Assembly: GCA_013153965.1 (NCBI GenBank) | Contig: JAADDJ010000052.1 | Coordinates: 5,944 to 69,943, forward strand | Source of the DNA: Thermotogota bacterium | GTDB taxonomy: Bacteria > Hydrothermota > Hydrothermia > LBFQ01 | Length of the DNA stretch: 64,000 bases | Direction: 5' to 3' | Shown: one piece after another, positions 2,859-62,248 of the stretch | Layout: each line of letters begins with the position of its first letter | Position numbering within the stretch: position 1 is the first letter of the stretch | The notes under the pieces: model-generated | The model's database searches: none | Seen by the model: the letters and a program-made list of their open reading frames with translations, nothing else | What the model was told of the DNA's origin: nothing | Made by a program: the position numbers and the translations under genes

Positions 2859-2880
2859 AAGTGGGTATTGTACGGCCGTC
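2859..2880 (-). promoter_or_regulatory. Leaderless-type promoter: TACAAT then 8 nt (acccactt) then ATG
   Basis: Minus strand reads GTACAATACCCACTT-ATG, same arrangement as the other TAnAAT+8 nt promoters in the window. Confidence 0.5.
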
Positions 2881-2907
2881 CCCAATCGTAATGATAAACG
2901 AGTGATT

Positions 2908-2929
2908 TGCCAGTATAATACCCGCTTCC
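2908..2929 (+). promoter_or_regulatory. uvrA promoter: CCAGTATAATACCCGCTTCC immediately 5' of ATG
   Basis: TATAAT at 2914-2919, 10 nt to ATG at 2930. One of 5 copies of the CCAGTATAATA(C/G/A)CCGCYT element. Confidence 0.55.
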
Positions 2930-5734
2930 ATGCGCAAGCTCATAGTCAAGGGTGCGAGGCAGCATAACCTGCAGAATATAACGGTTGAGATACCCAAGGA
3001 CAGCTTTGTGGTCATAACGGGGGTATCCGGCTCCGGCAAGTCCTCCTTGGCCTTTGATGTGATATATGCGGAGGCGCAGAGGAGGTACGTGGAGAGTCTC
3101 TCGCCCTACGCCCGTCAATTCTTGGGCGTGATGGAGAAGCCGGATGTGGAGGAGATTGAGGGACTCTCTCCCGGCATAGCCATAGAGCAGCGCAAGATAA
3201 TGCGGAACCCCCGGTCAACGGTGGCGACGACGACCGAGATATACGACTACCTGCGTCTCCTGTTCGCCCGCGCCGGTACCCCCCACTGCCCCAACGACGG
3301 AACCCCTTTGCAGCGCTGGAGTGTTGATGAGATCGTAGATGTTCTCTTTAAAAAGTATCCCTATCGGAGACTGCAGATTCTGGCGCCGGTGGTAAGGGGC
3401 AAGAAAGGAGAGTTTCGCGACCTCCTCTCCAAGATAGCCAAGAGAGGATTCGTGAGGGTGCGGGTTGATGGGATAATGTACGACGTTGAGGAGGTGCCTC
3501 AACTTGACAAGAATAAGCGCCACGACATAGAGATAGTCGTTGATAGGGTGATGGTGAGGGAGGAGGACCGCAGCCGCATACACCAGTCGGTGGAGACGGC
3601 TCTCAAGGAGGCGGAGGGTCTGGTCAAGATAATAACCGACAGGGACGAGGAGGAGATCTTCAGCGAAAGTTTGGCCTGTCCCAAGTGCGGTTTCTCCATG
3701 CCGGAGCTGGAGCCGAGACTCTTCTCGTTCAACAGTCCCTACGGGGCCTGCCCCGTATGTACGGGTTTGGGCGTGAAGATGGACTTTGATCCGGGCAAGC
3801 TCATAGCCAATCCGGACCTATCAATAATGGAGGGGGCCATAAAGCCCCTATCCGAGCCGCATCCCATAACGGCCCGGGTCCTCCAGAGGATCGCCCGCAA
3901 GTACGGGGCGTCCATCCACGACCCTTGGCGTATCCTCCCCGAGCCCTTCAAGAATGTGGTCCTCTGGGGGGTGGAGGAGCCTCCCGAATCCTTGGATGAT
4001 CAGGACTTCAAGCCCCTATACAGGGATTGGGACGGGATAATCCCCCAGCTGTGGCGCAAGTACAAGAGTACGGACTCGGAGTGGGTGAGGGCCGACATAG
4101 GCCGTTATATGATATACACCACGTGTCCGGCGTGCGGAGGCTCCCGGCTCCGTAGGGAGGCCCTCTCGGTCTATGTGGCCGATAAGAACATATGGGACAT
4201 AGTGCAGATGAGCGTCAGGGACGCTCTCGCCTTCTTCCGCACCCTGAAGTTGGAAGGCAAAAGGGGCGTCATAGCCGAGCGTATAGTGGGCGAGATCGTG
4301 CGCCGTTTGAAATTCTTGGACGATGTGGGTCTGGGTTATCTGACGTTGGACCGCCGCTCCGACACGTTATCCGGAGGAGAGGAGCAGAGGGTCAGGCTGG
4401 CGACCCAGATAGGCTCGGGTCTCTCGGGTGTCATATACGTTCTGGATGAGCCCACCATAGGTTTGCATCCGAGGGATAACAGCAAGCTCATAGGGACGCT
4501 GAAGCACCTGCGGGACCTCGGGAACACGGTCATAGTGGTTGAGCACGACGAGGAGACGATACGCAACGCCGATTACATAGTGGATCTGGGTCCCGGCGCC
4601 GGCGTCTATGGGGGCCGAGTGGTGGCGCAAGGTACGGTTGAGGACATCATCCGGAGCGAGGAGTCGCTGACCGGCGCCTATCTGTCCGGGCGCAAGAGCA
4701 TTCCGGTGCCTGCCGAGAGGCGTAAGCCTAAGGACGAGTGGCTGAAGATAGTCGGGGCGAGGGAGAATAACCTGAAGAATATAACCGTCTCCATCCCCCT
4801 CGGTCTCTTCGTGGTGGTAACCGGGGTTTCGGGCTCGGGTAAATCCACGCTGGTTATGGACATCCTCTACAGGGCCTTGGCCAAGAAGCTCTACCGCTCC
4901 AAGATGGATCCGGGGGAGCATGAGACGATTCTGGGGATGGAGTACATTGACCGGGTGATTGACGTGGACCAGTCCCCCATAGGGAGAACGCCGCGCAGCA
5001 ACCCGGCCACCTACACGGGGGTTTTCACCTACATAAGGGACTTCTACGCCAAGCTGCCGGAGTCCAAGGCTCGCGGCTACAAACCTTCCCGCTTCTCCTT
5101 CAATCTGCGAGGTGGCAGGTGCGAGGCCTGCGAGGGCGAAGGGTACGTGCGGATAGAGATGCACTTTCTGCCGGATATCTTCGTCCCCTGCGAGGTGTGC
5201 CGGGGTAAGAGGTACAACGCCGAGACGCTGGAGATAAAGTACAAGGGCAAATCCATAGCCGACGTTCTGGATATGACGGTGGATGAGGCTTACGAGTTCT
5301 TTGAGGACGTGCCCACCATCCGCCGCAAGTTGCAGGTGATGATTGACGTGGGGTTGGGGTACATAAAGCTGGGCCAACCCTCAACCACCCTATCCGGAGG
5401 TGAGGCGCAGCGGATAAAGCTGGCCAAGGAGCTGTCCAAGATCCCCACGGGGAGGACGCTCTACATTCTGGATGAGCCGACTACGGGCCTCCACTTTGAT
5501 GATGTGAGGAAGTTGATAGATGTCCTCCACCGCTTCGCCGATAACGGGAATACGGTTCTGGTGATTGAGCACAACCTGGATGTGATAAAGAATGCGGATT
5601 GGGTGATAGATCTGGGTCCGGAGGGCGGAGATGAGGGGGGTTATCTGGTGGCGGAGGGGCCGCCGGAGGAGGTGGCGAAGGTTCCGGAGTCCTATACGGG
5701 GCAGTATCTAAGGAGAGTGCTGGGGAGGGGGTAG
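2930..5734 (+). CDS. uvrA: Excinuclease ABC subunit A
   Basis: 934 aa; two ABC ATPase modules ([25 protein letters not shown], second [21 protein letters not shown]) and CxxC zinc fingers. Confidence 0.95.
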
Positions 5735-6634: not shown

Positions 6635-7281
6635 GAGCCCTCGGAGGGAACCACCCTAAAACCCTTCACCTTGAACCTGACGGGCCTTCCCAGTATGGAC
6701 GTCAGGAGCCTACCCATAACCTCCTCAAAACGTCTGGACAGCTCGGAGTACCACGCGGGAAGCTCGTCCTTCATCCTCTTGCGGGCGACGCTCCTTATGT
6801 AGTCAAATACGGGTGAGGCCTCGTAGGACCTCATAGGAGTTCCGAATATGCCCACCTCCTCGGACACCACCCACCACCTATCAACCGATATCATTATATC
6901 GGGCTCCGGAAGGACCACATCCACCACGACGGTATCGCCGGAGTACCGCAACTTTATGTCCTTCTCCCTTATCTGCGATATGTCAAAGAATAGTTTGAAG
7001 GAGACGATGAACTTGAGGGTCGTTTTCCTCCCGCCGACCGTAAAGGGCACCTTCAGGACGGGGGGGACCGTATCGGAAACCTCGTACTCCCGCTTTACCT
7101 CCAGAACTACCAGTTTCGCCACCTCCCTTATTGAATTCAGCAGACCCCTCTCCGTGAGGGAGAAGGTGGTTCTTCGGTCCCTCCAGAGAGTGCTCAATCC
7201 CGCCTTCCTTATATAGACCACCCCCAAGAGCGTCCAGAGAATCGCCCAAACGGTAATGAAGGCACACACCCTTTTCAACAT
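6631..7281 (-). CDS. Hypothetical protein with N-terminal TM anchor (DUF4230-like)
   Basis: 216 aa, single N-terminal TM then a soluble domain. Leaderless TAGAAT promoter 7 nt upstream. Confidence 0.4.
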   Translation of the reverse strand: MLKRVCAFITVWAILWTLLGVVYIRKAGLSTLWRDRRTTFSLTERGLLNSIREVAKLVVLEVKREYEVSDTVPPVLKVPFTVGGRKTTLKFIVSFKLFFDISQIREKDIKLRYSGDTVVVDVVLPEPDIMISVDRWWVVSEEVGIFGTPMRSYEASPVFDYIRSVARKRMKDELPAWYSELSRRFEEVMGRLLTSILGRPVRFKVKGFRVVPSEGS

Positions 7282-7288
7282 CTCCGCT

Positions 7289-7318
7289 ATTCTAACGTAG
7301 GTAAGACGTCGTTAGAAT
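7289..7318. promoter_or_regulatory. Perfect 9-bp inverted repeat ATTCTAACG-N12-CGTTAGAAT providing a TAGAAT -10 for each of two divergent leaderless genes
   Basis: Left arm 7289-7297, right arm 7310-7318. Minus gene ATG at 7281 is 7 nt from its TAGAAT; plus gene ATG at 7324 is 5 nt from its TAGAAT. Confidence 0.5.
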
Positions 7319-7323
7319 ATCCT

Positions 7324-7818
7324 ATGCGCCTCTTCAAAGTTCTCGTGGGGATGGTGCTGGTGGGCGGTGGGGCTCTGGTCGTCCTATACCTGTTCATGAG
7401 GGGGTTGGAGCGCACGAAGGTTGAAGCGTCCTCCGCGAACGCCTCCACTCCCAGCTTCCTTGAGGAGGACACGCTACCGAGCTGGACCTACGAGGATCTG
7501 CCCACGGACTGGCCCTCCGAACCCGACGACTCCTTGGCCTCCTTGGGGGAGGAGCTCTTCAACACCAGAGGCTGCAAGGTATGCCACACCGTGGGGGAGG
7601 GAGAGTTGGTCGGCCCCGACCTCAAGGGGATAGATGAGCGCAGGCCCTACCGTTGGACCCTCCTGCTTCTCCTTCGCCCCGACAGCATGCAGAGGGACGA
7701 TTCGCTCGCCCGGGCTCTCCTCAAGAGATACGGAGTTCAGATGCCGAATCAGAGGCTCACTCTGGATGAGGCGGAGGCCATCCTCCACTACGTACTGCGG
7801 GAGAGTTCTCGTCCTTAA
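7324..7818 (+). CDS. Membrane-anchored class I cytochrome c
   Basis: N-terminal TM, CKVCH haem-binding motif, distal Met region. Confidence 0.7.
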   Translation: MRLFKVLVGMVLVGGGALVVLYLFMRGLERTKVEASSANASTPSFLEEDTLPSWTYEDLPTDWPSEPDDSLASLGEELFNTRGCKVCHTVGEGELVGPDLKGIDERRPYRWTLLLLLRPDSMQRDDSLARALLKRYGVQMPNQRLTLDEAEAILHYVLRESSRP

Positions 7819-11637: not shown

Positions 11638-12836
11638 CTACCGGCCACTCCGCTCGTGCTGAAGGCCCGCTTCAGGGCACTCTCAAGGTCCGCTATCAGG
11701 TCCTCCGCATCCTCCAAGCCCACCGACAACCTCACGAGATTCGCCGGAAAGTCGGTCGTGGGAGATAGGGCGTGGGTGGTCAGGGCGGGCGATGTGGCCA
11801 GACTGTCGGTATCCCCGAGGGAGACGGCGAAGTGGAATATCCGCAGGGACGTGATGAATCGCTTGAGATTCTCCCGCGTGCCGTCAAGGACGAAGGAGAC
11901 CATCCCGGAGTACCCCTTCTCCATCTGCTTCTTGGCTATGTGATGGTAGGGGAAGGATTCCAGACCCGGATAATACACCTCCACGACCTCGGGGCGACTC
12001 TCCAGAAATCTCGCCACCCTCATCGCATTCTCCGAGTGCTTGCGCATCCGCACGGCCAAGGTGCGTATCCCCCGGGCGGTGAGCCAAGCGTTGAAGGGCT
12101 GCATCAGGGTACCGAACATCTTGGTAGTGTGGAGAAGCTCCCCCACGAACTCCTCGCTCCCGACGACCACCCCGCCTATGGTGTCCCCGTGCCCGTTCAG
12201 ATACTTGGTCGTACTGTGCAGGACTATGTCCGCTCCCCACCTTATGGGCTTCTGGTGGAAGGGGGTGGCGAAGGTGTTATCCACCACGACCACGGCCCCG
12301 TTCTCGTGGGCGAGATTTGAGACCAGCTCTATATCATAGACGGTGAGGGTGGGATTTCCGGGGGTCTCCACGTAGGCCACCCGGTAGCCCCCCGCCTTGA
12401 GGGCGTCGTAGAACTCCTCCGGCCCGAGGACATCAACCCGTATTCCGAGATGCTCCTGAAGGTACGCGAACAGCTCACCCGTCCCCCCATAGACCGGCTT
12501 GGAGGATACCATCCTGTCCCCCGGCTTGAGGAGAGTCAGGAGGGTGGTGGCTATGGCGGCCATACCGGAGTTGAAGGCAACACCGGCCTCGGCCCCCTCC
12601 AGCAGGGCCACCTTCTTGCCCAGATAGAGGGCGTTAGGGTTGGAGACGCGGGTGTATATGTGGTGGTGCTCCTCACCCGTGAAGGCGCCGTAAGCCTCCT
12701 CCAGGGAGTCAAAGATGAAGGTGGAAGTCTGGTATATGGGGAGGCGGTGGGCGTTTATGGACTTGTTCGTTTGAGCGTCGGTCTTGTGGAACCTTTCCTC
12801 ATCAAGACCTCGTACGATCTTCGTATCCTCATGCAT
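11634..12836 (-). CDS. PLP-dependent Cys/Met metabolism enzyme (cystathionine gamma-synthase / methionine gamma-lyase / O-acetylhomoserine sulfhydrylase family)
   Basis: 400 aa; family motifs YTRVSNPN, SSTKYLNGHGD (PLP lysine). SD AAGGGGGA 6 nt upstream. Overlaps the ABC gene by 4 nt. Confidence 0.8.
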   Translation of the reverse strand: MHEDTKIVRGLDEERFHKTDAQTNKSINAHRLPIYQTSTFIFDSLEEAYGAFTGEEHHHIYTRVSNPNALYLGKKVALLEGAEAGVAFNSGMAAIATTLLTLLKPGDRMVSSKPVYGGTGELFAYLQEHLGIRVDVLGPEEFYDALKAGGYRVAYVETPGNPTLTVYDIELVSNLAHENGAVVVVDNTFATPFHQKPIRWGADIVLHSTTKYLNGHGDTIGGVVVGSEEFVGELLHTTKMFGTLMQPFNAWLTARGIRTLAVRMRKHSENAMRVARFLESRPEVVEVYYPGLESFPYHHIAKKQMEKGYSGMVSFVLDGTRENLKRFITSLRIFHFAVSLGDTDSLATSPALTTHALSPTTDFPANLVRLSVGLEDAEDLIADLESALKRAFSTSGVAGR

Positions 12837-12925
12837 AGCTTCCCCCTTGTTGTGGTATTATAGCCTTGAAACCCGCGGGAGGGCGCGCCCTGCAGGGGGA
12901 TCGTTGGCACCGTGGGGGCACCGTG

Positions 12926-12954
12926 GTGTGCTTTCGGCGGTAAAATCCCCACCT
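12926..12954 (+). promoter_or_regulatory. etfB promoter GTGTGCTTTCGGCGGTAAAAT then 8 nt then ATG
   Basis: Near-identical to 31577-31603 (GTGTCGCTTCGGCGGTAAAAT then 7 nt then ATG). Confidence 0.5.
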
Positions 12955-13695
12955 ATGAAGGTCCTCGTGTTCATAAAGCGCACACCTGACACCGCCGCCG
13001 TGGTCAAACCCACGCCCGACGGCAAGGACATAGTCAGGGACGGTTTAGCCTTCATCATAAATCCCTACGACGAGTTCGCGGTCCAAGAGGCGGTGAATCT
13101 GCAGAAATCCAAGGGAGCGGAGACCGTGGTCATGACGGTGGGGGACGACGCCTCCGTTGAGCAGTTGAGGCGGGCCCTCGCCATGGGTATAGATAGGGCG
13201 ATACTGGTGAAGCACGACAGATTCTGGGAGTTGAATCCCTCGCAGGTGGGCTACGCCATCGCCGAGATAGCCCGCAGAGAGAAGCCCGACATCATCCTCA
13301 TGGGTAAGGTGACCATAGACGATTACACCTACGCCCTGCCCGGGTACGTGGCCCAAGCCCTCGGCTACAACCTCCTGACCTACGCCGTGAAGCTGGAGTA
13401 CGGCGACGGCTCCGTCAAGGGCGAGAGGGAGAGCGATCTGGGTAAGGAGACGTGGGAGGTCCCCTATCCGATAGTGATAAGCGCCGAGAGGGGACTGAAC
13501 GAGCCCCAGATACCCACGGTGATGGGCATAATGAAGGCCAAGCGCAAACCCCTGGAGACCGTTGACCTGGAGCTCCCCTCATACGAGTACGAGATAGTGG
13601 AGCTGACCCCGCCGCCCCCGCGCAAGGGCGTGAAACTGCTCCAGAGCGTGGATGAGCTTATAAAGGTCCTCAAAGAGGAGGTGAAGATACTATGA
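12955..13695 (+). CDS. etfB: Electron transfer flavoprotein beta subunit
   Basis: MKVLVFIKRTPDTAAVVKP...IINPYDEFAVQEA typical of ETF-beta. Track ORF starts upstream at 12784; ATG 12955 fits the family N-terminus and the leaderless promoter. Confidence 0.85.
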   Translation: MKVLVFIKRTPDTAAVVKPTPDGKDIVRDGLAFIINPYDEFAVQEAVNLQKSKGAETVVMTVGDDASVEQLRRALAMGIDRAILVKHDRFWELNPSQVGYAIAEIARREKPDIILMGKVTIDDYTYALPGYVAQALGYNLLTYAVKLEYGDGSVKGERESDLGKETWEVPYPIVISAERGLNEPQIPTVMGIMKAKRKPLETVDLELPSYEYEIVELTPPPPRKGVKLLQSVDELIKVLKEEVKIL

Positions 13696-30975: not shown

Positions 30976-31286
30976 CGCAGCCGGCTCCGCAGTATATCCG
31001 GCCCTATCCTCTCCTCCAAGAAGGTATGGTTTAGATCCATTATCTCCTCCGGCGTCTTGCCGTCTGCCTCCTCACACACTATTGAGGCGCAGGCTTGGGA
31101 GACGGCGCACCCCTCCCCGGTGAATGATACGCTCAACGTACCGTCCGAGTTCCTTCGCAGGTATATCACGACGACGTCCCCACACCCCGGATTCCCTCCC
31201 TTGAGGACCACGTCGGCCTCCTCCATCCGCCCCCTGCGGCGGGGACGCTGATAGTGGTCAAGGATGTAATCCAAGAACTCCTGCAT
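30915..31286 (-). CDS. NifU/IscU/SufU-like Fe-S cluster scaffold protein
   Basis: NPGCGD and GEGCAVSQA cysteine motifs. Confidence 0.7.
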   Translation of the reverse strand: MQEFLDYILDHYQRPRRRGRMEEADVVLKGGNPGCGDVVVIYLRRNSDGTLSVSFTGEGCAVSQACASIVCEEADGKTPEEIMDLNHTFLEERIGPDILRSRLRCATLALDTLKAAVSNLKTS

Positions 31287-31558
31287 CAGGATCCGCTCTC
31301 AACGAACTCCCGATAGTACCGGCTGAACTTGGACTTGAGGCGTGCCACCTTGTTGGGGTGGAATATCCTGCGCCGGCCCATCTTGTCAAGGACGGAGTAC
31401 AGCTCCCGCAGGAGGTTCTCCTTCTCCTCGGCGGTCTGGGCCTTCCTGAATCTCTTGCGGAGCATCCTGAATAGATTCTTCCAACGCAGGTTCCTGATGC
31501 GCCTACGCTCCTGCCTCCTCTGCGTCCTTAACACCGATATCTTCTTCTTGCTCGCCAT
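31286..31558 (-). CDS. rpsT: 30S ribosomal protein S20
   Basis: 90 aa, basic, typical S20 sequence. Leaderless CCAGTATAATACCCGCTT-ATG. Confidence 0.9.
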   Translation of the reverse strand: MASKKKISVLRTQRRQERRRIRNLRWKNLFRMLRKRFRKAQTAEEKENLLRELYSVLDKMGRRRIFHPNKVARLKSKFSRYYREFVESGS

Positions 31559-31578
31559 AAGCGGGTATTATACTGGTG
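31559..31578 (-). promoter_or_regulatory. rpsT promoter CACCAGTATAATACCCGCTT (TATAAT then 8 nt then ATG)
   Basis: Identical core to the uvrA, 62211 and 57951 elements. Confidence 0.55.
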
Positions 31579-31580
31579 TC

Positions 31581-31603
31581 GCTTCGGCGGTAAAATAGCC
31601 TCC
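31581..31603 (+). promoter_or_regulatory. Promoter GCTTCGGCGGTAAAAT then 7 nt then ATG for 31604 gene
   Basis: Twin of the etfB promoter. Confidence 0.5.
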
Positions 31604-32482
31604 ATGGTCCTTCTGATGCTGGTCTTCCAAACTCCGGGCGCCTCGGATACCACCGAGCCCTGCACGTGCGATCAGCTCCCGCAGGAGGAGATAGAGAGGA
31701 TCCTCAAGCAGATGGAGGAGGAGACCCGCTCCGTCCATCCGTCCGAGGTCCTATCCTTCGCCGAGAGCCTCTTTAAGGATGGCAAGTACAGGGAGGCGGC
31801 CTTGGAGTACCTGCGGTTCGTCACGCTGTTCCCCAACAGCGACAGCGCCGACTACGCCCACTTTATGGCGGCCTACAGCTACGAGTTGGCCGGGCTGTAC
31901 GAGTCCGCCGAGCGCCTCTTTAAGAAGCATCTGGAGGAGGGACGTAGGGGCGAGGTGTGGGTCCATTACGAGCTGGCGAGGATGTACCTGCATCTGGGGG
32001 ATACGGTGGCCTTCTACTCGGAGCTCTCCCAGATGCCCCGAAAGTCGCTTCAGCGCAAGGTCCTCATAGCATGGTTGAAGCTCGCGCAGGGGAACTGGGA
32101 GGGGGCCCGGAGGATATTGGCGGGGACTCCCCTTCAGGAGTACCTGCAACCTCCCAATCTGAAGTCCCCAACGAAGGCGGCCCTACTGTCAATCGTGCCC
32201 GGTCTGGGTCAGGCGTACGTTGGGAATCGGGGGACGGCTTACATGGGTGTTGCCTTCGTCGGCGGCTTCTACGCCCTCGCCGGATACTACGCCTTCAAGG
32301 AGAAGAGACTCCTACCCGCCTTGGCCTCCTTGGGAGTAGGTTTGGCATTCCACGCCGGCCAGATTTACGGCTCATGGGCCATGGCGAAGGTTATAAATAG
32401 GACGGAGTGGAGGGAGGTGATGGAGAGCTTCAAGCGGGGAGTTGATGAGGTGGTCAGACCGAAGATTGACGACTTCCTATGA
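31604..32482 (+). CDS. TPR-repeat protein with C-terminal 2-TM module (paralog C of a 3-member family)
   Basis: TPR-like N-terminal half. C-terminal LSIVPGLGQAYVGNRG plus two TM helices, shared with 33211..33903 and 33885..34574. Confidence 0.5.
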   Translation: MVLLMLVFQTPGASDTTEPCTCDQLPQEEIERILKQMEEETRSVHPSEVLSFAESLFKDGKYREAALEYLRFVTLFPNSDSADYAHFMAAYSYELAGLYESAERLFKKHLEEGRRGEVWVHYELARMYLHLGDTVAFYSELSQMPRKSLQRKVLIAWLKLAQGNWEGARRILAGTPLQEYLQPPNLKSPTKAALLSIVPGLGQAYVGNRGTAYMGVAFVGGFYALAGYYAFKEKRLLPALASLGVGLAFHAGQIYGSWAMAKVINRTEWREVMESFKRGVDEVVRPKIDDFL

Positions 32483-47271: not shown

Positions 47272-47961
47272 TCACCAGTTCCAGACTATCCTGAAGATGC
47301 GGTTGAATCGTATCCGGCGGCGTTTGGGATCCCACGAGAAGTATATTATAAGGGGCCTTCCCCGCAGGTACTTCACGTCCAGAGGCCCCCAGAATCTGGA
47401 GTCCCACGAGAAGTCCCTATTGTCTCCGAGTACGAATATCTTCCCATCCGGAACCACGACGGGACCGAAGTTGTCCCTCACCCACTCGGCATCCATCAGC
47501 TCGCCACTCTCCCACAGCCTCTGGAACTCCTCGGGGGATATGTCGTCGTAGGGCCACTCTATGATGCGTCTGTCCTTGAAGACCACGTAAGGCTCCTTGA
47601 GGGGGCGGCCGTTGATATACACCTGCTTGTTTATTATTTCAACCGTATCCCCCGGCAGGCCTATCGTTCTCTTCACGTAGTCCTTCGGCTCGTAGGGGAA
47701 TCGGAAGACCACGATGTCCCTCCTCTTTGGGAGGACCCTCTCCGGTATCTTTATGGGCGTGAGGGGTATCACGATACCGTATATGGGCTTGAACACGAAG
47801 AGGAAATCTCCGGGTAGGAGGGTGTCCTCCATTGAGCCGGTGGGTATGACGTAGGCCTGAATGAGAAAGGCCCTTATAAGTAGCACTATCAGGATGGTGT
47901 ATAACCATCCCCGCAGCGATTCCTTCCAACTCTTACCATCATCCCTATTACCCCTGTCCAA
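47272..47961 (-). CDS. lepB: Signal peptidase I
   Basis: GSMEDTL (Ser box), GDNRDFSWDSRFWG (box E). TTG start with TATAAT then 8 nt. Confidence 0.85.
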   Translation of the reverse strand: MDRGNRDDGKSWKESLRGWLYTILIVLLIRAFLIQAYVIPTGSMEDTLLPGDFLFVFKPIYGIVIPLTPIKIPERVLPKRRDIVVFRFPYEPKDYVKRTIGLPGDTVEIINKQVYINGRPLKEPYVVFKDRRIIEWPYDDISPEEFQRLWESGELMDAEWVRDNFGPVVVPDGKIFVLGDNRDFSWDSRFWGPLDVKYLRGRPLIIYFSWDPKRRRIRFNRIFRIVWNW

Positions 47962-48009
47962 GAGTGGGTATTATATTGGGGGGAGCCCCCGCCTTAGAAT
48001 TAGTCGGTC

Positions 48010-49383
48010 GTGCAGGAGATAAAGGTCCCCCACAGTCCGGATGCCGAGATGGCCATCCTATCCGCCTGCCTCTACAAGCCGGAGCTACTCGCCAAAGCCA
48101 TAGTTGAGCTTCGTGAGGAGGACTTCTACGACCCCAAGCATCGCCTCCTCTTCGCCGCCATGAAGTCCCTGTACAACGAGAACACCGTCGTGGATGGAGC
48201 CCTCCTCATAGAGTTCCTGCGCAAGAGGAACCTGCTGGAGAAGGTTGGCGGCATCCCCTACCTGACCGAGATATTTGACAGCATCAGGGGCTCCGCATCC
48301 TTGGCCCTCTTTGAGCAGTACCTGAAGATCGTAAAGGATAAGTCCATAAAGAGGGGGATAATAAACACATTCTCCGAGACCATCCGCCTCGCGTACGAGG
48401 ATGAGCTGGATGCCGACGCCATCTTGGACAGGGCGGAGAAGGAGATATTTGACATAAGGATGCGCACCATGCGCTCCACCCAGTGGGTTCCGGTGGGGGA
48501 CGTGGCCATGAACCTCCTTAACAAGATTGAGGCTCGCCTCTCGGGGGACCTGCCTCCCGAGGCGATTCTCACGGGGTTCAGGCATTTGGACAAGATAACG
48601 GGAGGATTCCGGCCCGGCGAATGGATAATAGTGGCGGCGCGTCCCTCCGTCGGTAAGACGGCCTTCGTCCTGAACATCCACCGCAACATGGCCTTGGACG
48701 GGATTCCCACGGCGATGTTCTCCTTGGAGATGACGGCGGAGGCTCTGGCCATGCGACTCCTGTCCCTTGAGAGTGGAATACCCATGAACATAATTCGCGA
48801 GGGGCGACTGACCATCAGGGAATTGCCCAAGCTGGCCGATGCCGTTGAGAGGCTGATGGACATGCCCTTCTACATAGACGTTAGCCACGGCATAGACATA
48901 TTTGAGATACGGAGCAAGGCGAGGATGGTGGTGCAGGAGTACGGCGTGAAGATGATATCCATAGACTACCTGCAGCTCATGGACCTGCGAGGAGGGAGGG
49001 GAAAGAACATGACGAGAGCCGAGGAGCTGGCTAAGATTTCAAGGAGTCTGAAGATACTGGCCGGGGAGTTGGGCGTATCCATAGTGGGCATATCGCAGGT
49101 TAGCCGCGAGGTGGAGAAGCGGGCTGACAAGAAACCCACGATGGCGGACTTGAGGGAGTCGGGCGCCCTTGAGCAGGATGCGGATATCATCCTCCTCCTC
49201 TACAGACCCGGCCAGTACGATAAGGAAGCGGACGATTCTCTGGTGGAGGTGGAGGTGGCCAAGAACCGTCAGGGAAGTCAGGGAACGGTGAAGTTGCACT
49301 TCTACAGGGAGTTCATGAGATTCGCCGACTGGCACGACGAGGACGAGAGCATTGAGCACGTGGAGGGGGATCTACCCTTTTAG
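48010..49383 (+). CDS. dnaB: Replicative DNA helicase
   Basis: Walker A ARPSVGKTAF, DnaB family motifs. GTG start 9 nt after TAGAAT. Confidence 0.9.
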   Translation: MQEIKVPHSPDAEMAILSACLYKPELLAKAIVELREEDFYDPKHRLLFAAMKSLYNENTVVDGALLIEFLRKRNLLEKVGGIPYLTEIFDSIRGSASLALFEQYLKIVKDKSIKRGIINTFSETIRLAYEDELDADAILDRAEKEIFDIRMRTMRSTQWVPVGDVAMNLLNKIEARLSGDLPPEAILTGFRHLDKITGGFRPGEWIIVAARPSVGKTAFVLNIHRNMALDGIPTAMFSLEMTAEALAMRLLSLESGIPMNIIREGRLTIRELPKLADAVERLMDMPFYIDVSHGIDIFEIRSKARMVVQEYGVKMISIDYLQLMDLRGGRGKNMTRAEELAKISRSLKILAGELGVSIVGISQVSREVEKRADKKPTMADLRESGALEQDADIILLLYRPGQYDKEADDSLVEVEVAKNRQGSQGTVKLHFYREFMRFADWHDEDESIEHVEGDLPF

Positions 49384-49404
49384 AGCCAGCATCCCACACC
49401 GTTC

Positions 49405-49423
49405 CCCAGTATAATAGCCGCTT
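49405..49423 (+). promoter_or_regulatory. rpsN-cluster promoter CCCCAGTATAATAGCCGCTT-ATG
   Basis: TATAAT 49410-15, 8 nt, ATG 49424. Confidence 0.55.
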
Positions 49424-49609
49424 ATGGCAACGAAGGCACAGATGGAGAAGATGAAGAGGAAGCCCAAGTACCGAGTGCGGTACAGGAACAGGTGCAAGAT
49501 ATGCGGGAGGGACCACGGATACATAAGGCAGTTCGGCATATGCCGCATCTGCTTCCGCGAGATGGCCCTGTTCGGGAAGTTGCCCGGCGTCGTTAAGGCT
49601 TCCTGGTGA
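49424..49609 (+). CDS. rpsN: 30S ribosomal protein S14 type Z (zinc-binding)
   Basis: 61 aa, CKICGR...CRIC. Confidence 0.9.
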
Positions 49610-49627
49610 AAATAAGGAGGTACAAGT

Positions 49628-50023
49628 ATGATGACGGATCCTATCGCCGACATGCTAACCCGCCTACGCAACGCCATAATCGCGGGCCACAAGGAGACCG
49701 TCGTGGAGCCGGCCTCCAAGTTCAAGATGGCCATACTGGACGTCCTCAAGAGGGAGGGGTACATAGACGGCTACGAGGTTGAGGGCGAGGGCATCAAGAG
49801 GAGGCTTCGGGTCTTCATCCGCTACCACAAGGGGCAACCCGTGATGAGGCACATAGAGAAGGTCTCCAAGCCCGGAAGGCGGGTTTATGTCGGAGTTGAG
49901 GAGATTCCCAAGGTGTATAACGGCCTTGGAATAGCGATACTATCCACGTCCAAGGGGGTCCTCTCCGATCGCGAGGCGAAGCGACTGAGGGTAGGCGGAG
50001 AGCTGATAGCCAAGGTGTATTAA
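49628..50023 (+). CDS. rpsH: 30S ribosomal protein S8
   Basis: MTDPIADMLTRLRNA; SD AAGGAGGT upstream. Confidence 0.9.
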   Translation: MMTDPIADMLTRLRNAIIAGHKETVVEPASKFKMAILDVLKREGYIDGYEVEGEGIKRRLRVFIRYHKGQPVMRHIEKVSKPGRRVYVGVEEIPKVYNGLGIAILSTSKGVLSDREAKRLRVGGELIAKVY

Positions 50024-50035
50024 GGGAGGTCCGAG

Positions 50036-50644
50036 ATGTCAAGACTGATAAAGAAACCCATAAAACTTCCCGCGAAGGTGAGCGTATCCGTCAAGGAGGG
50101 TGAGGGGAAGTTCAGCGGAGATACGGTTAAGGGCAAGATCTTCCACTTCAAGGGACCCAAGGGGGAGATTGAGGTCTTCGTCCCTCCCCTCGTGGAGGTT
50201 GAGAGCAAGGACGGCGAGATATGGGTCAAACCCATAGACCCCGCCAAGCTCCCCAAGCCCATGCGCAAGATGGCGAGGGCCCTCCCCGGCACCATATACC
50301 GCCATCTTGAGAACGCCGTGAAGGGCGTTCTTGAGGGATACACCAAGGTCCTCAAGGTGGTGGGTCAGGGCTACAGGGTGAAGAAGGAGGGGGATAAGTT
50401 CGTCTTCACCGTCGGATACTCCCATCCGGTGTATTACGAGGTACCGCAGGAGTACCGCAAGTACGTGAAGGCGGAGGTTCAGGGCGTTGATACGGTCATA
50501 GTCAGCGGCACCAGCAAGGAGCTGGTGGGACTCGTCGCCGCCCAGATCCGCTCCATAAAGGAACCCAACATCTACACGGGCAAAGGTATCCGCTACGCCG
50601 ATGAGGTCATCACCCTCAAGCCCACGAAGAAGGCCAAGGTGTAA
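50036..50644 (+). CDS. rplF: 50S ribosomal protein L6
   Basis: MSRLIKKPIKLP..., SD GGGAGG. Confidence 0.9.
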   Translation: MSRLIKKPIKLPAKVSVSVKEGEGKFSGDTVKGKIFHFKGPKGEIEVFVPPLVEVESKDGEIWVKPIDPAKLPKPMRKMARALPGTIYRHLENAVKGVLEGYTKVLKVVGQGYRVKKEGDKFVFTVGYSHPVYYEVPQEYRKYVKAEVQGVDTVIVSGTSKELVGLVAAQIRSIKEPNIYTGKGIRYADEVITLKPTKKAKV

Positions 50645-50655
50645 GGAGGTAAGGA

Positions 50656-51051
50656 ATGAGGTACGTTTCTGAAAGACGAAAGACCGAGTACAGGAGCAGG
50701 AGGCGCAAGAGGAGGCACCTTCGGGTACGCAAGAGGATTGAGGGCACGCCCGAGAGGCCCCGTATGGTCGTTCGCAGGTCCAACAAGCACATATACGTGC
50801 AGATAGTCCTTGATCCCCCCTTCAGCTCGTCCATCGTAATAACCGGCGCCTCAACTCTGTCGCCGGAGCTGCGCGAGAGGATAAAGGGCATGAGCAAGAC
50901 GGAGCAGGCCAAGGAGGTGGGCAAGCTCATAGCCGAGAGGGCCAAGGCGAAGGGCATAACGAAGGTCGTATTTGACCGGGCCGGCTACCGGTACCACGGA
51001 CGCGTCAAGGCTCTGGCCGAGGGCGCCCGTGAGGGAGGCTTAGAGTTTTAA
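50656..51051 (+). CDS. rplR: 50S ribosomal protein L18
   Basis: Basic N-terminus, typical L18 C-terminus; SD GGAGG. Confidence 0.9.
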
Positions 51052-51063
51052 AGGAGGTGAAAG

Positions 51064-51579
51064 ATGGAAGATCAACTCATTGAGACTACGGTGATAATCC
51101 GTAGGACGTCCAAGATGACGTCCGGAGGACGCAAGTTCCACATAGACGCGTGGGTGGTCGTCGGCAACGGCAACGGTAAGGTGGGGGTCGGCCACGGGAA
51201 GGCGCAGGAGACCCCCGACGCCATCCAGAAGGCCATCCGCAAGGCCAAGAAGAACATGATCCGGGCCATAGTCTGGCGCGGGACAGTCCCCCACGATATA
51301 CAGGTGAAGTTCAAGGCCACCAAACTCCTGATAAAGCCCGCATCCCCGGGTACGGGTATCATCGCCTCCCGCCCCGTGCGCGCCATACTGGAGGCGGCCG
51401 GATACCGCAACGTTCTAACGAAGCTCATAGGCTCCACCAACCCCATAAACGCCCTCTACGCCACGATAAAGGCCCTCTCCATGATGCGCAGCCCCGACGA
51501 GGTCCTCTCCGCGAGGGGCAAGAAGAAGAGGAAGGAGGTGAAGAAGGATGAGGAAGCTCAAAATAACCCTGAAGCGTAG
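51064..51579 (+). CDS. rpsE: 30S ribosomal protein S5
   Basis: VVVGNGNGKVGVGHGKA motif; SD AGGAGG. Confidence 0.9.
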   Translation: MEDQLIETTVIIRRTSKMTSGGRKFHIDAWVVVGNGNGKVGVGHGKAQETPDAIQKAIRKAKKNMIRAIVWRGTVPHDIQVKFKATKLLIKPASPGTGIIASRPVRAILEAAGYRNVLTKLIGSTNPINALYATIKALSMMRSPDEVLSARGKKKRKEVKKDEEAQNNPEA

Positions 51580-51733
51580 CCTGATAGACAAGAGCAAGAA
51601 GACCAAGCGGATACTCCGCTCCTTGGGATTGCGCAGGATAGGTCAGGAGGTGATCCATCGGGACAATCCCGCCATCCGCGGACAGATTGAGAAGGTCAGG
51701 CGGTACATAGAGGTTGAGGAGATAGAGGGTTGA
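51548..51733 (+). CDS. rpmD: 50S ribosomal protein L30
   Basis: MRKLKITLKRSLIDKSKKTKR..LRSLGLRRIGQ; overlaps rpsE 3' end. Confidence 0.8.
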   Translation: MRKLKITLKRSLIDKSKKTKRILRSLGLRRIGQEVIHRDNPAIRGQIEKVRRYIEVEEIEG

Positions 51734-52773
51734 GGGGCTTTATAAAGAAGATACGGAAGTTCTTCAAGCCGGCGATAGCGATAGACCTTGGCACCTCCAC
51801 CACCCTCATATACCTCAAGGGCGAGGGCATAGTCTTAGAGGAAGCCTCCGTTATAGCGATAGACGCCGAGACGAAGGAGATAGTGGCCGTGGGGAACGAG
51901 GCCAAGAAGATGCTCGGGAAGACCCACTCCGGCCTCATAGCCAAGCGACCCATCAAGGACGGCGTCATACACAACTTGGAGTACGTCCAGATGATGCTCG
52001 GGGAGTTTCGCCGCCGAGTCATACGGAACTTCATAGCCAACCCAACGATGCTCATGGCCGTCCCTTCGGGAGCCAACGACGTTGAGCGTAAGGCGACGAT
52101 AGACGCCGCAAAGAGCGTGGGGGCGAGCCACGTCTTCCTGATAGAGGAGCCCGTAGCCTCCGCCGTGGGGATAGGTTTGGACGTATTTGAGCCCCGGGGT
52201 CATATGATAGTAGATATAGGCGGAGGAACGTCCGAGATAGCGATAATATCGCTGGCCGGGGTCGTGGCCAAGCAACCCATACGGGTGGCCGGCGACGAGA
52301 TGAACGAGGCCATAGCAGACCACATACGCCGCACGTACAACATAGCCATTGACGAGAACATCGCCGAGCAGATAAAGATACGCATCGGGGACGTGTATGG
52401 CGACCGCGACGACGAGATGGTCATAAAGGGATGGGAGGTCTTCTCGCGCAAGCCCACGGAGATAACCATCCGCTCATCCGACGTCAAGGAGGCTCTCAAG
52501 GGTGTTATAGACTCCCTGGCGCAGGCCATCCGCAAGGTGCTTGACATGGCCGAGCCCTCCGTCGTCAAGGACGTTTTAGAAGAGGGCATATACCTGACGG
52601 GCGGAGGCTCCACCATCCACGGTCTGGATAAGCGGTTGGAGGAGGAGACGGGCGTAAAGTTCATACGGGCCAAGAACCCCCACCAGAGTGTCGTGATGGG
52701 GGCGGGTAGCGTTCTGGAGAATCTGGACAGGAAGCCGGTTTATAAGAAACTGCTCATCGCCGCAAGCAGATAA
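51730..52773 (+). CDS. mreB: Rod shape-determining protein MreB
   Basis: AIDLGTSTTLIY, actin-fold motifs; ATGA overlap with rpmD. Confidence 0.9.
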   Translation: MRGFIKKIRKFFKPAIAIDLGTSTTLIYLKGEGIVLEEASVIAIDAETKEIVAVGNEAKKMLGKTHSGLIAKRPIKDGVIHNLEYVQMMLGEFRRRVIRNFIANPTMLMAVPSGANDVERKATIDAAKSVGASHVFLIEEPVASAVGIGLDVFEPRGHMIVDIGGGTSEIAIISLAGVVAKQPIRVAGDEMNEAIADHIRRTYNIAIDENIAEQIKIRIGDVYGDRDDEMVIKGWEVFSRKPTEITIRSSDVKEALKGVIDSLAQAIRKVLDMAEPSVVKDVLEEGIYLTGGGSTIHGLDKRLEEETGVKFIRAKNPHQSVVMGAGSVLENLDRKPVYKKLLIAASR

Positions 52774-56567: not shown

Positions 56568-56957
56568 CTATCGGCAAGGGAATCTCACGGTATCGCCCAC
56601 GCGCACGCCATGCCTCTCAAACCATCCCTTGGGGACCTCAAGGGCATACATGGCCGGATGCTTTGAAACTACGGCCCTCTCGTCGTAAGGCTCAAGGTCG
56701 TACATCTCCCGTATCACCCACCGGTCGTCTATGTATGCTATGGACAGAGGTATCCGGGTATTCTTCATCCAGAAGGACAGACGCTGGGGATAGGGGAATA
56801 CGAAGAGCATTCCCCTGTTCTCGGGAAGGGTATCCCGAAACATCAAGCCTCGGGACCTCTCGTAGGGATCATCCGCCACCTCAACCCACAGAGTATCCCC
56901 ACCCACGCACAGAGGAAGGAGAGCGAGCAAAGAGCCAGCGGTGGGACTCGAACCCAC
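56568..56957 (-). CDS. DUF192 domain protein
   Basis: GLMFRD...GMLFVFP motif. GTG start overlaps the tRNA-Thr 3' end by ~25 nt; the true start may be internal. Confidence 0.55.
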   Translation of the reverse strand: MGSSPTAGSLLALLPLCVGGDTLWVEVADDPYERSRGLMFRDTLPENRGMLFVFPYPQRLSFWMKNTRIPLSIAYIDDRWVIREMYDLEPYDERAVVSKHPAMYALEVPKGWFERHGVRVGDTVRFPCR

Positions 56958-57005
56958 AACCTGCGCATTACGAATGCGCCGCTCTGCCGATTGAGCTACG
57001 CTGGC
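56933..57005 (-). tRNA. tRNA-Thr (anticodon CGU)
   Basis: Cloverleaf by eye: acceptor GCCAGCG/CGCTGGC, D-arm GCTC-AATCGGCA-GAGC, anticodon stem GCGCA/TGCGC with loop TTCGTAA, T-arm GTGGG-TTCGAGT-CCCAC. No encoded CCA. TATAAT 11 nt upstream of the 5' end. Confidence 0.8.
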
Positions 57006-57042
57006 TTGAGGGATGTATTATACCCCCGAAAGGGGAGTGAAT

Positions 57043-57639: not shown

Positions 57640-57950
57640 AGGAACTTCTCAAGCTCTTTGCGATACTCCGGAGGAAGCTCGGCCAAGAACTCCTTGGTCT
57701 TCTCCCTCTGAAATTCCATCGCCTTCTGGATGGCGCTGTTGACCGCATTCACTATGGCATTCTCAACGGAGGTGATGTCCTTGAGGCCCTCGGGATTTAT
57801 CCGAACCTCAACCAGCTTGCCCTCTCCGCTGACCACCACCTTCACGTTTCCGTTGTATCCTGTCTCCTCAAAACGGGCATTCTTGAGCTCCTTCTGAAGT
57901 TTCTTGGCCTTCTGTTGGAGCTCCCAAAGCTTCTTCATCTGGCCGAACAT
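57636..57950 (-). CDS. ybaB: Nucleoid-associated protein YbaB/EbfC
   Basis: MFGQMKKLWELQQKAKKLQKEL typical. Confidence 0.85.
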   Translation of the reverse strand: MFGQMKKLWELQQKAKKLQKELKNARFEETGYNGNVKVVVSGEGKLVEVRINPEGLKDITSVENAIVNAVNSAIQKAMEFQREKTKEFLAELPPEYRKELEKFL

Positions 57951-57966
57951 AGGCGGTTATTATACT
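57951..57966 (-). promoter_or_regulatory. ybaB-recR promoter CCCCAGTATAATAACCGCCT-ATG
   Basis: TATAAT then 8 nt then ATG. Confidence 0.5.
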
Positions 57967-57977
57967 GGGGAAAGTAC

Positions 57978-61133: not shown

Positions 61134-62210
61134 CTACTTGCCCTTCTTCTCCAACTGCATGGCCTTCTTCAGGTCCCTAAGGGCGGCCCTTCTCTTGCCC
61201 ATCGCCTTGTATATGGCGGCCCTTATGCGGTAGAGGGCGGGATCATCACCCTTGAGCTTTATGGCGTCGTTTATGTACTTGAGGGCCTCCTTGTACCTCT
61301 TCTGCTCGTAGAGGACCTCGGCCAAGGCCTGCGGTATGCGGTAATCGTCCTTCTTCAGAGCATAGGCCTGCTTCAGATACTTGACGGCGTTCTCGTAATC
61401 CTTCTTGGCGGCATAGACGTTGCCCAGATTGGCGAGCACCTCGTAGTCGTCCTTCTTGATCTCGTAGGCCTTCTTGAAGTACTTGATGGCCTCATCGTAC
61501 TTCTTCTGCTCAAACATCAGGATGGCGTACTCCTTATAGACCTCAAGTTTGACCTTATCGTCGGCGGCCGTATCGCTCTCAACGGCCTGTATGACCTCCT
61601 TGAGGAGCTTCTCCGCCTCCTGCTTGTTGCCTTCGTAGGAGTAGAGGACGGCCAGCTGGAGCTTGGCGTGGTAGTTGTTGGGATCCCGCTTGACGGCCTC
61701 TATCAGGTACTCCTTGGCCTTCTTCTCGTCGCCCTTGGCGTTATAGACGGTGTGCAGGAGTAGGTAGGTGTTGGCGTTGTTGGGATTCACCTTGAGGGAG
61801 TACTCAAGGTAGGGGAGAGCCTCATCGTACTTTCCATCGTTTATGAGCTTAACGGCGGCGTTGTTGAAGACAGCCGAGACCGCCTCGTAGGGCATGAGGG
61901 GCTGGCCGGCTATGGCCACCGTCTTCTCAAACTTACCCTTGTCCATGTAGGTGGAATCCAACGTGAAGGCCCTCTTGAAGTCGTTGGCCGCCTCGGCGTA
62001 CTTGTACTTGCGCGTGTATATGATGGCCCTCCAAAGGTAGGCCTTCGCGTTGGTGGAATCCTCCGCTATCCACTTGTTGGCGTTCTCCAGAGCCTTTTCC
62101 AGATTGTCCTGCTGAATGTATATCTTGGTGCTTGAGGCGTAGGGGGACTCAAGGGACGCGCATCCGAAGGCTAAAAATCCCAAAGTAATGGCAAAAATCG
62201 CCTTTCTCAT
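61134..62210 (-). CDS. TPR-repeat lipoprotein
   Basis: Signal peptide/lipobox (LAFGC), ~8 TPRs. Confidence 0.6.
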   Translation of the reverse strand: MRKAIFAITLGFLAFGCASLESPYASSTKIYIQQDNLEKALENANKWIAEDSTNAKAYLWRAIIYTRKYKYAEAANDFKRAFTLDSTYMDKGKFEKTVAIAGQPLMPYEAVSAVFNNAAVKLINDGKYDEALPYLEYSLKVNPNNANTYLLLHTVYNAKGDEKKAKEYLIEAVKRDPNNYHAKLQLAVLYSYEGNKQEAEKLLKEVIQAVESDTAADDKVKLEVYKEYAILMFEQKKYDEAIKYFKKAYEIKKDDYEVLANLGNVYAAKKDYENAVKYLKQAYALKKDDYRIPQALAEVLYEQKRYKEALKYINDAIKLKGDDPALYRIRAAIYKAMGKRRAALRDLKKAMQLEKKGK

Positions 62211-62228
62211 AGGCGGGTATTATACTGG
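62211..62228 (-). promoter_or_regulatory. Promoter CACCAGTATAATACCCGCCT-ATG
   Basis: TATAAT (62219-24 on minus), 8 nt, ATG 62210. Confidence 0.5.
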
Positions 62229-62248
62229 TGGTGCGGGGGGCAAGCCCC

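Follow-up and report, generated by a model that had tools for sequence, protein, structure and literature searches.

Why do several unrelated genes in one stretch of bacterial DNA start directly behind almost the same 20 or so nucleotides (nt), and how can two such segments fit back-to-back, on opposite strands, into 45 bp? The stretch in question, here called the window, is a 64-kb contig segment from a bacterium labeled as Thermotogota, and the 45 bp are the divergent intergenic region at positions 31559–31603, between rpsT (ribosomal protein S20) and a TPR gene starting at 31604. The original prediction described two extended promoter cassettes, one built on TATAAT and the other on TAAAAT, and attributed them to a specific sigma factor or a regulon of highly expressed genes. 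That the cassettes are promoters is borne out by our analysis. We consider it likely that they are complete core promoters, spanning approximately -18 to +1, of leaderless transcription units, and that, in this thermophilic bacterium of the WOR-3 type, the TATAAT version (class 1) is the strong promoter for ribosomal-protein genes and others with high expression.

Class 1 in the Window and in Related Genomes

The class 1 string, CCAGTATAATA, occurs exactly at 2910(+), 31566(-), 49406(+), 57958(-), and 62218(-) and with one mismatch at 47969(-). These six matches compare with 0.35 ± 0.61 expected, and 0 of 100 shuffles reached six, so the conservation beyond the hexamer is real and non-random, as had been claimed. 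A string search also recovered all of the extended strings quoted in the original prediction, each running straight into an ATG; at rpsT, the reverse complement reads AGCGGGTATTATACTGG and not GGCGGGTATTATACTGG (GGCGGG...), a small transcription slip. Every exact copy abuts the ATG start codon of a gene, with 8 nt between hexamer and ATG at rpsT, rpsN, ybaB, and the gene for a TPR lipoprotein (start 62210), and 10 nt at uvrA, which is also the sole copy with T at -18 (Table 1). The rpsN promoter heads the unit rpsN-rpsH-rplF-rplR-rpsE-rpmD.

When one genome for each of 185,579 species was scanned with the pattern CCAGTATAATANCCGCYTATG, that is, C[CA]CCAG-TATAAT-A[CG]CCGC[CT]T-ATG, the class 1 21-mer gave 32 matches, compared with approximately 2 expected by chance, and 31 of them fell in seven related metagenome-assembled genomes (MAGs). 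The labels among these MAGs are WOR-3 (five), “Thermotogota” (one), and “uncultured bacterium” (two); one with the last label (L019) encodes an L19 protein 70% identical to that of the clade. The remaining match, in Paenibacillus, has a 26-codon open reading frame (ORF) downstream and is presumed to be due to chance. Over common genes, the matching MAGs share 70–83% nucleotide identity with the window and therefore represent different species.

The ORFs starting at the ATG of each match were annotated by Pfam. Ribosomal proteins account for 18 of the 31 matches and 8 of the 12 gene families, with the motif directly upstream of L36 (five matches), L19 and L15 (three each), S20 and S14 (two each), and L34, S12, and S21 (one each). 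The others are V-type ATPase subunit B (five), the ortholog of the TPR lipoprotein encoded at 62210 in the window (four), a PpiD-like chaperone (two), and an acidic 124-aa protein with no known function (two). This composition supports the proposal that highly expressed genes form a regulon. Sequences close to the motif also stand ahead of ndk, rplO, rpmI, nuoD, an acyl-CoA dehydrogenase gene, and pckA. Where promoters of orthologous genes could be compared, class 1 was present in the relatives, and the similarity ended at approximately -18/-20; for example, the promoter of the 62210 lipoprotein gene is kept in the orthologs at L002, L005, L010, and L017, and these promoters from five species are alike only downstream of that point.

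Both flanks of the hexamer take part in this conservation. In the unbiased window sample, the upstream CCAG and the discriminator A[ACG]CCGC[CT]T (the segment between hexamer and start codon) co-occur as 5/0/0/19 (Fisher p = 2.4e-5). Under a matrix built from non-class-1 promoters, whose consensus is AGCCGCTT, class 1 discriminators outrank every other one; the class 1 discriminator is therefore the extreme of a general preference. Only its position 2 varies freely. C and G each occupy it in about half of the copies and A in one, and which base is used depends on the gene. Class 1 is a discrete promoter class, conserved at orthologous genes and strongly enriched at ribosomal-protein operons. 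It combines a perfect TATAAT and an exact 8-nt spacing with the consensus discriminator and its own version of the upstream element described below.

The ribosomal-protein gene cluster is fragmented in the window (48010–51750) and at L013, L016, L025, L003, L004, and L018. The rpsN-rpsH-rplF-rplR-rpsE-rpmD unit comes after a dnaB-like gene, and in the relatives rplO, rpmJ, rpmH, rpsL, rpsU, rplS, and rpsT each appear to have a leaderless promoter of their own.

Table 1. Predicted promoters in the window, with their parts in the order upstream element, -10 hexamer, discriminator, and start codon.
Feature	Coordinates	Strand	Parts	Pfam identity of downstream gene (coordinates)
Whole divergent region, rpsT and TPR gene	31556-31606	both	CAT aagcgggt ATTATA ctggtgtcgcttcggcgg TAAAAT agcctcc ATG	
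rpsT (S20), class 1, predicted leaderless	31556..31578	-	CACCAG 31578-31573, TATAAT 31572-31567, ACCCGCTT 31566-31559, ATG 31558-31556	S20 (31286-31558, minus)
TPR gene, general type, predicted leaderless	31585..31606	+	CGGCGG 31585-31590, TAAAAT 31591-31596, AGCCTCC 31597-31603, ATG 31604	TPR (31604-32482)
uvrA, class 1	2908..2932	+	TGCCAG-TATAAT(2914-2919)-ACCCGCTTCC-ATG(2930)	UvrA (2930-5734)
rpsN (S14), class 1	49404..49426	+	CCCCAG-TATAAT(49410-49415)-AGCCGCTT-ATG(49424)	S14 (49424-49609)
ybaB, class 1	57948..57970	-	CCCCAG-TATAAT(57964-57959)-AACCGCCT-ATG(57950)	YbaB (57636-57950, minus)
TPR lipoprotein gene, class 1	62208..62230	-	CACCAG-TATAAT(62224-62219)-ACCCGCCT-ATG(62210)	TPR (61134-62210, minus)
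etfB, general type, predicted leaderless	12935..12957	+	CGGCGG-TAAAAT(12941-12946)-CCCCACCT-ATG(12955)	ETF-beta (12955-13695)
Tight divergent pair, minus side, near-class-1 (mismatch copy)	47959..48012	-	CCCCAA-TATAAT(47975-47970)-ACCCACTC-TTG(47961)	S26 signal peptidase
Tight divergent pair, plus side, dnaB-like gene	47959..48012	+	CCGCCT-TAGAAT(47995-48000)-9 nt-GTG(48010)	
Further minimal divergent pair	7279..7326	both	CAT(7279-7281)-7 nt-ATTCTA(7289-7294)-18 nt-TAGAAT(7313-7318)-5 nt-ATG(7324)	
tRNA-Thr (56932-57005) with promoter	56932..57028	-	CGGGGG-TATAAT(57022-57017)-ACATCCCT, 11 nt before mature 5' end	

Predicted Leaderless Organization

The key point missing from the original prediction is that the genes behind these promoters look leaderless. 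Most of the 50 TAnAAT hexamers in the window have the start codon of a long ORF 7–9 nt downstream, and such a box stands at this distance ahead of approximately 30 of the approximately 65 window genes. Across the window and 30 related loci (about 310 kb and 303 genes), 102 genes had a TAnAAT 5–10 nt upstream of the start, with a mode of 8 nt; 84 of them start with ATG, 12 with GTG, and 6 with TTG, and all exact class 1 copies with ATG. Genes with a proximal TAnAAT make up about a third of all genes and include essentially every operon-first gene, and the five class 1 and both TAAAAT copies fit the same spacing. Genes inside operons (rpsH, rplF, rplR, rpsE, and others) carry AAGGAGGT Shine–Dalgarno sites instead. 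No Shine–Dalgarno sequence lies between promoter and start in the TAnAAT-led genes, where the discriminators are C-rich (ACCCGCTT and similar).

A TA-like box approximately 10 bp upstream of the start codon is an accepted signature of leaderless genes (PMC3160421), and leaderless mRNAs make up about 60% of the total in Deinococcus deserti, where they have a -10 motif but lack a conserved -35 (PMC4007540). The base preceding the start codon points the same way, being a pyrimidine in 62 of 76 aligned promoters and A in 2. Y(-1)-A(+1)-T(+2) would be a perfect pyrimidine–purine–pyrimidine (YRY) “start” element, of the kind that sets the transcription start (PMC12641261), and would indirectly support a start at the A of the ATG. 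The mRNAs of these genes are probably leaderless, and this organization appears to be the general architecture of the genome, not confined to the cassettes. Because the genes look leaderless and the start codon comes only 8 nt past the -10 box, CCGCYT is to be read as a discriminator. It had been taken for the initial transcribed sequence, a role that does not suit a segment lying between -10 box and start codon and mostly not transcribed.

The tRNA genes provide a check, independent of translation, on TATAAT with the upstream C as a promoter mark. The tRNA-Thr gene of the window has such a promoter (Table 1). Among eight RNA genes inspected in related loci (seven tRNAs and one transfer-messenger RNA (tmRNA)), most of the tRNAs have the same promoter 9–11 nt before the mature 5' end, with the discriminator pattern ACCnnCCT.

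The tRNA-Thr gene of the window and the tRNA genes at L004 3698-3769, L001 7900-7971, L003 5414-5485, L021 3117-3188, and L026 3396-3469 are preceded by a perfect TATAAT, C at -18, and an ACC-rich 8-nt discriminator. Their primary transcripts would have a 5' leader of 0–3 nt (“near-leaderless”), leaving little for RNase P.

The spacing also bears on gene annotation. Taking the longest ORF often puts the start too far upstream, for example, in the ORFs at 12784-13695, 55913-56566, and 2906-5734, and automatic annotation of these MAGs therefore likely mis-calls many starts. The rule TAnAAT-N7-9-ATG picks a downstream in-frame ATG or GTG, placing the start of etfB at 12955 and that of a PduO-like gene at 56006. 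An odd mixture of promoter-proximal start and Shine–Dalgarno-like sequence is found on the minus strand at L014 (~830-2705), where four tandem paralogs of ~201-206 aa (MGVALAEKPE...) each follow CGGCC(T/A) TAGAAT ggaggttggt ATG, with GGAGG inside the 10-nt gap.

Upstream Element and Divergent Pairs

Alignment of 76 promoters without CCAG on their hexamers revealed an upstream element, C(-18)-N-N-C(-15)-C(-14)-K(-13), with C(-18) in 70, C(-15) in 55, C(-14) in 52, and K(-13) in 66 of the promoters; A was found at -6 in 37. Among promoter hexamers, 92% have C(-18), vs. 34% among other TAnAAT; in relatives with 41–44% GC, it occurs at 32 of 35 promoter-like sites vs. 28% of other hexamers. The strong signal is confined to C(-18) and CC(-15/-14), with little information at -22 to -19 besides a T/A preference at -19. 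No -35 box was detected in this alignment, where positions -40 to -28 hold at most approximately 0.1 bit. The best match to TTGACA averaged 3.28 vs. 3.36 ± 0.06 in shuffles and was no better than at a shifted control position, and 4-mer enrichment likewise revealed no -35 box.

CCAG had been interpreted as an extended -10 element. CCAG is instead a variant of the general C(-18)NNCCK with A at -14. The -15/-14 bases are not those of the TG type: the general class has C/C there and class 1 has C/A, with T(-15) in 8 and G(-14) in 13 of the 76 promoters, and a standard sigma-70 scan found no TG ahead of the rpsT hexamer. From their sequences, the promoters appear to carry a lineage-specific upstream element in place of the -35 box. 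Precedents for such a replacement exist, as the contact of sigma70 R451 near -18 can replace the -35 box (PMC3130263), and so, for the Thermus RNA polymerase, can the Z-element at -22 to -18, which is read by the beta' zipper (PMC3173786).

The intergenic region at 31559–31603 is made up of an 8-nt discriminator, a hexamer, 18 nt, a second hexamer, and a 7-nt discriminator. It is thus predicted to hold two back-to-back leaderless promoters on opposite strands, an arrangement that had been described correctly. The 18 nt separating the -10 boxes correspond to two 6-nt upstream elements and 6 spare bases. Besides this pair, the window has two other tight ones, with -10 boxes 18 nt (7279-7326) and 19 nt (47959..48012) apart. 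Across the lineage, inter-hexamer distances cluster at 18–21 nt at six independent loci, and rpsT of a hot-spring clade falls within the cluster with a different partner gene; the remaining distances spread over 24–62 nt, with extremes of 15 and 6 nt. Such tight divergent packing would be impossible if anything upstream of -18 were required. The sigma-70 scan assigns rpsT a 4/6 “-35” (TTTACC), which is the complement of the TAAAAT region of its partner. One might speculate that the 18-20-nt cluster reflects reciprocal weak -35 mimicry between partners.

The shortest distance, 6 nt, is found at L045 2955-2994, where the genes for V-type ATPase subunit B and a STAS-domain protein diverge over a 34-bp intergenic region. 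There CAACCG/CGGTTG, read on both strands, is the upstream element for both promoters alike. In the window (2856-2932), uvrA stands opposite a gene of ~950 aa (start 2858, minus strand) with hexamers 41 nt apart; the promoter of the latter, CGGCCG TACAAT acccactt ATG, has a class-1-like discriminator.

TAAAAT Promoters, Relatives, and Outgroups

The TAAAAT string, CGGCGGTAAAAT, occurs in the window at 12935(+) and 31585(+), two matches vs. 0.09 expected, with a spacing to ATG of 8 nt at etfB and 7 nt at the 31604 gene. We do not regard it as a second conserved class, as had been proposed. The CGGCGG ahead of TAAAAT is one instance of the general upstream element; upstream of the hexamer, the two copies agree at 12 of 15 nt, a degree of likeness that is unusual in a nominal sense only (column-shuffle P = 0.026); and the etfB ortholog in L031 (tttCAACGG TAAAAT ccccaccct ATG) lacks the likeness.

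More distant relatives retain the design. Homologs of S20 and L19 at 57–72% identity were found in Yellowstone hot-spring metagenomes and in MAGs with 41–44% GC (one named WOR-3); a metagenome scan for S20 relatives gave a single locus, L032. In the homolog loci, rpsT is preceded by ttCACCCT TAAAAT ccccgcct ATG, gdh by CAAGGA TATAAT acccgcct ATG, the L19 gene by CGCCCG TATAAT acccgcc ATG, and the V-type ATPase B gene by CGGTTG TATAAT tcccgcctt ATG. In the 41%-GC relatives, the genes for L19, V-type ATPase B, S20, and gdh keep (A/T/C)CCCGC(C/T)T while several other genes have AT-rich discriminators, so the C-rich form is selected and is not a by-product of GC content.

S20 and L19 homologs at a still greater distance proved to be outgroups: L037-L040, with TAnnTTTG-type promoters, and L046, with a classical Shine–Dalgarno-led trmD-rplS operon, bound the distribution of the leaderless TAnAAT architecture and add no mechanism. 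At L039 and L037, which encode S20 homologs at 46–50% identity (GC 53%, type IX secretion system (T9SS) genes), many genes have a Bacteroidetes-type TAnnTTTG (e.g., gtgctatctttgccggcc ATG) that ends a few bases before the ATG. This position suggests leaderless or near-leaderless transcripts with a different -10-type element.

Proposed Mechanism and Its Alternatives

If the cassettes are core promoters, the housekeeping RNA polymerase holoenzyme would bind through the -18 to -1 segment only, with region-3 or zipper-type contacts to the upstream element, sigma region 2 on the hexamer, and sigma region 1.2 together with the core enzyme on the discriminator. In the absence of a -35 box, all specificity would be packed into approximately -18 to +2 (about 27 bp abutting the ATG), and because this segment is the conserved block, strong promoters look like long cassettes. 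Transcription would start at the A of the ATG, at the T|A junction 9 nt past the -10 box. Discriminator positions 6-8 of class 1 are all pyrimidine (C-Y-T), leaving no alternative purine start, so that the A of the ATG is the sole purine in range. The resulting 5'-AUG mRNA would be translated without a Shine–Dalgarno site.

By analogy with known discriminators, class 1 would be a strong, rrnB-P1-like promoter, sensitive to growth rate or the stringent response, that serves the translation apparatus and other highly expressed genes. C- or GC-rich 8-bp discriminators mark translation genes in Gracilicutes and confer dependence on growth rate or guanosine tetraphosphate (ppGpp) (Kuo et al. 2025, PMC12641261). 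An Rfam search of the window and 34 loci found no ribosomal-protein leader RNAs, only tRNAs and one tmRNA. Given this, and given that leaderless ribosomal-protein mRNAs have no 5' untranslated region (5'-UTR), the shared promoter is a plausible coordinator: synthesis of ribosomal proteins would be coordinated at transcription, the 5'-UTR needed for classical translational feedback being missing.

Several points weigh against these proposals. The window genes come from a codon-usage call by our own simple caller, and the loci used for the statistics were fetched via the motif, so that only three sets are unbiased: the window, genes in the loci other than the targets, and the loci retrieved by homology. 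Individual genes may have a 1–2-nt leader or another upstream promoter, and at uvrA, with its 10-nt spacing, the leader would be 2 nt long should transcription always begin 9 nt past the -10 box. We infer growth-rate or ppGpp control of class 1 purely from the analogy, and the C/G split at discriminator position 2 would leave that analogy to rrnB P1 incomplete. Position 2 is a key contact of sigma region 1.2 in E. coli. Finally, the general matrix gives the CCAG upstream element a below-average score, and A at -14 hardly occurs outside class 1 (2 of 76 promoters); class 1 thus amounts to more than the “consensus promoter” and could involve an extra factor or a second sigma.

The last point could be taken to mean that a transcription factor specific to the lineage, either an activator or a repressor, binds the class 1 cassette, that its site overlaps the core promoter, and that ribosomal-protein genes form its regulon; contacts with RNA polymerase would then not suffice to explain the conservation. 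Such a factor would account for the discreteness of the class, the co-variation of its flanks, the peculiar A at -14, the poor matrix score of CCAG, and the retention of every position across species with 70–83% nucleotide identity in the flanking genes. However, conservation is limited to exactly the stretch that RNA polymerase is known to touch (-18 to -1), and the block has no dyad or direct-repeat symmetry. The discriminator, moreover, is the consensus of the general set and also occurs without CCAG at the ndk, rplO, rpmI, nuoD, pckA, and tRNA promoters. We therefore judge a dedicated factor unlikely. A GTAT-N-ATAC palindrome was considered as a factor site and rejected, as the base after TATAATA varies among C, G, and A. 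A second group-1/2-like sigma factor that shares TATAAT and prefers A(-14)G(-13) and the ACCCGCYT discriminator would be less probable still. Bases at -13/-14 do discriminate between the related sigma factors sigmaS and sigma70 in E. coli, and here these positions differ categorically, being AG in class 1 vs. C and then G or T in the general class. Yet both classes drive housekeeping genes and have the perfect TATAAT, C(-18), and C(-15) in common, and the intermediates CCCCGG, CCCCCG, and CACCGG occur with class 1 discriminators. A region-2.2 motif search of the window and the loci found no sigma-factor gene. The specific sigma factor of the original prediction is not needed, although one may exist; the -10 box is the canonical housekeeping consensus.

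It could also be argued that the cassette is transcribed from a promoter further upstream and acts in the mRNA, for instance, as a translation enhancer that replaces the Shine–Dalgarno site; these ATGs indeed lack such a site, and the conservation abuts the start codon. This is very improbable: divergent intergenic regions of 45, 42, and 34 bp are too short to hold further promoters, tRNA genes are preceded by the same element, nothing is conserved upstream of approximately -20, and the motif has a perfect TATAAT at its center and no complementarity to the anti-Shine–Dalgarno sequence. Least probable of all is that the similarity reflects chance, base composition, a dispersed repeat, or a mobile promoter without a function of its own. 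The motif is short (~20 nt) and identical copies do precede unrelated genes, but the observed count was never reached in the shuffles and 31 of the 32 matches among 185,579 species genomes belong to one lineage. The copies sit at orthologous genes although neutral sites have diverged by 17–30%, and every one keeps a fixed distance to the start codon, with no flanking repeat structure. Chance or a repeat is effectively refuted.

Core promoters of leaderless units thus remain the reading that we prefer. A bolder version of it is conceivable, though we hold it to be rather doubtful: the -35 box would have been replaced by a new basal element (invariant C(-18) and CC(-15/-14)) read by a diverged sigma region 3 or beta' zipper, and CCAG-TATAAT-ACCCGCYT-ATG would be a regulatory handle shared by the genes for ribosomal proteins, tRNAs, and a few envelope and energy functions, perhaps through a specific factor or second sigma.

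Relation to Known Promoters

Neither leaderless, -10-only promoters nor rrn-like discriminators are new in themselves. The genes described here resemble the TA-led genes of Deinococcus-Thermus and Actinobacteria (Zheng et al. 2011, PMC3160421; de Groot et al. 2014, PMC4007540; Cortes et al. 2013, PMC3898074), in which TAnnnT lies approximately 6–9 nt before the start, Shine–Dalgarno sequences and a conserved -35 are absent, a large share of genes is involved, and operon-internal genes are Shine–Dalgarno-led. They differ in that they belong to WOR-3-type thermophiles, in having a full TAnAAT instead of the loose TAnnnT together with an almost invariant C(-18) and CC at -15/-14, and in that the ribosomal-protein operons would themselves be leaderless, with a near-identical cassette in common. 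As in extended -10 (TGn), Gram-positive “-16 region,” -18 spacer-contact, and Z-element promoters, sequence just upstream of the -10 would compensate for the missing -35, and -18 to -13 overlaps the known sigma region 3 and zipper contacts of those promoters. However, the element is C-N-N-C-C-K (C-N-C-C-A-G in class 1) and not the TGn or TRTG of extended -10 and -16 promoters; the T7A1 Z-element, AACCT at -22 to -18 (PMC3173786), would be comparable in function and differs in sequence and register.

The discriminators resemble that of rrnB P1 (Kuo et al. 2025, PMC12641261) in being 8 nt long and C-rich on the non-template strand, with a consensus -10 and a start A 9 nt downstream; they likewise occur at ribosomal-protein and tRNA genes and are more conserved among translation genes than among others. 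Unlike in rrnB P1, the discriminator here abuts the start codon and is conserved nearly base-for-base across genes and species, its position 2 is C or G, and there is no UP element or -35 box. Bacteroidetes promoters (-7 TAnnTTTG, -33 TTTG) are likewise a lineage-specific departure from those of E. coli; the lineage of the window uses TAnAAT and not TAnnTTTG. A full-text search of the WOR-3 literature found no paper mentioning leaderless mRNAs, and the paper on the first WOR-3 isolate mentions neither these nor promoters (PMC12285271). The C(-18)/CC(-15,-14) element and the near-invariant cassette of scattered leaderless ribosomal-protein operons appear to be new variants.

These results give a sequence-level description of promoters for the phylum-level lineage WOR-3, also called Caldipriscota or Hydrothermota. 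The rule C-N2-CC-K-TAnAAT-N7-9-ATG can be used to fix start codons and operon boundaries in these MAGs. In promoters that lack a -35 box, a near-invariant C(-18) makes a concrete candidate, open to testing, for a new contact between RNA polymerase and DNA, and a promoter common to many small, scattered ribosomal-protein operons suggests coordination at the level of transcription where leader-based feedback would be impossible. Since a cultured WOR-3 isolate exists (PMC12285271), start-site mapping and in vitro transcription are feasible.

Placement of the Window

The labels of the genomes involved are in conflict. The S20 protein of the window matches, at 100% identity, one from an NCBI MAG that is called “Thermotogae bacterium” (locus tag prefix GXO29), whereas most of the genomes that come closest in motif content and gene identity bear the name candidate division WOR-3, a group commonly placed near the Fibrobacteres–Chlorobi–Bacteroidetes (FCB) bacteria. 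The window encodes WOR-3-typical features, and its relatives carry a V-type ATPase.

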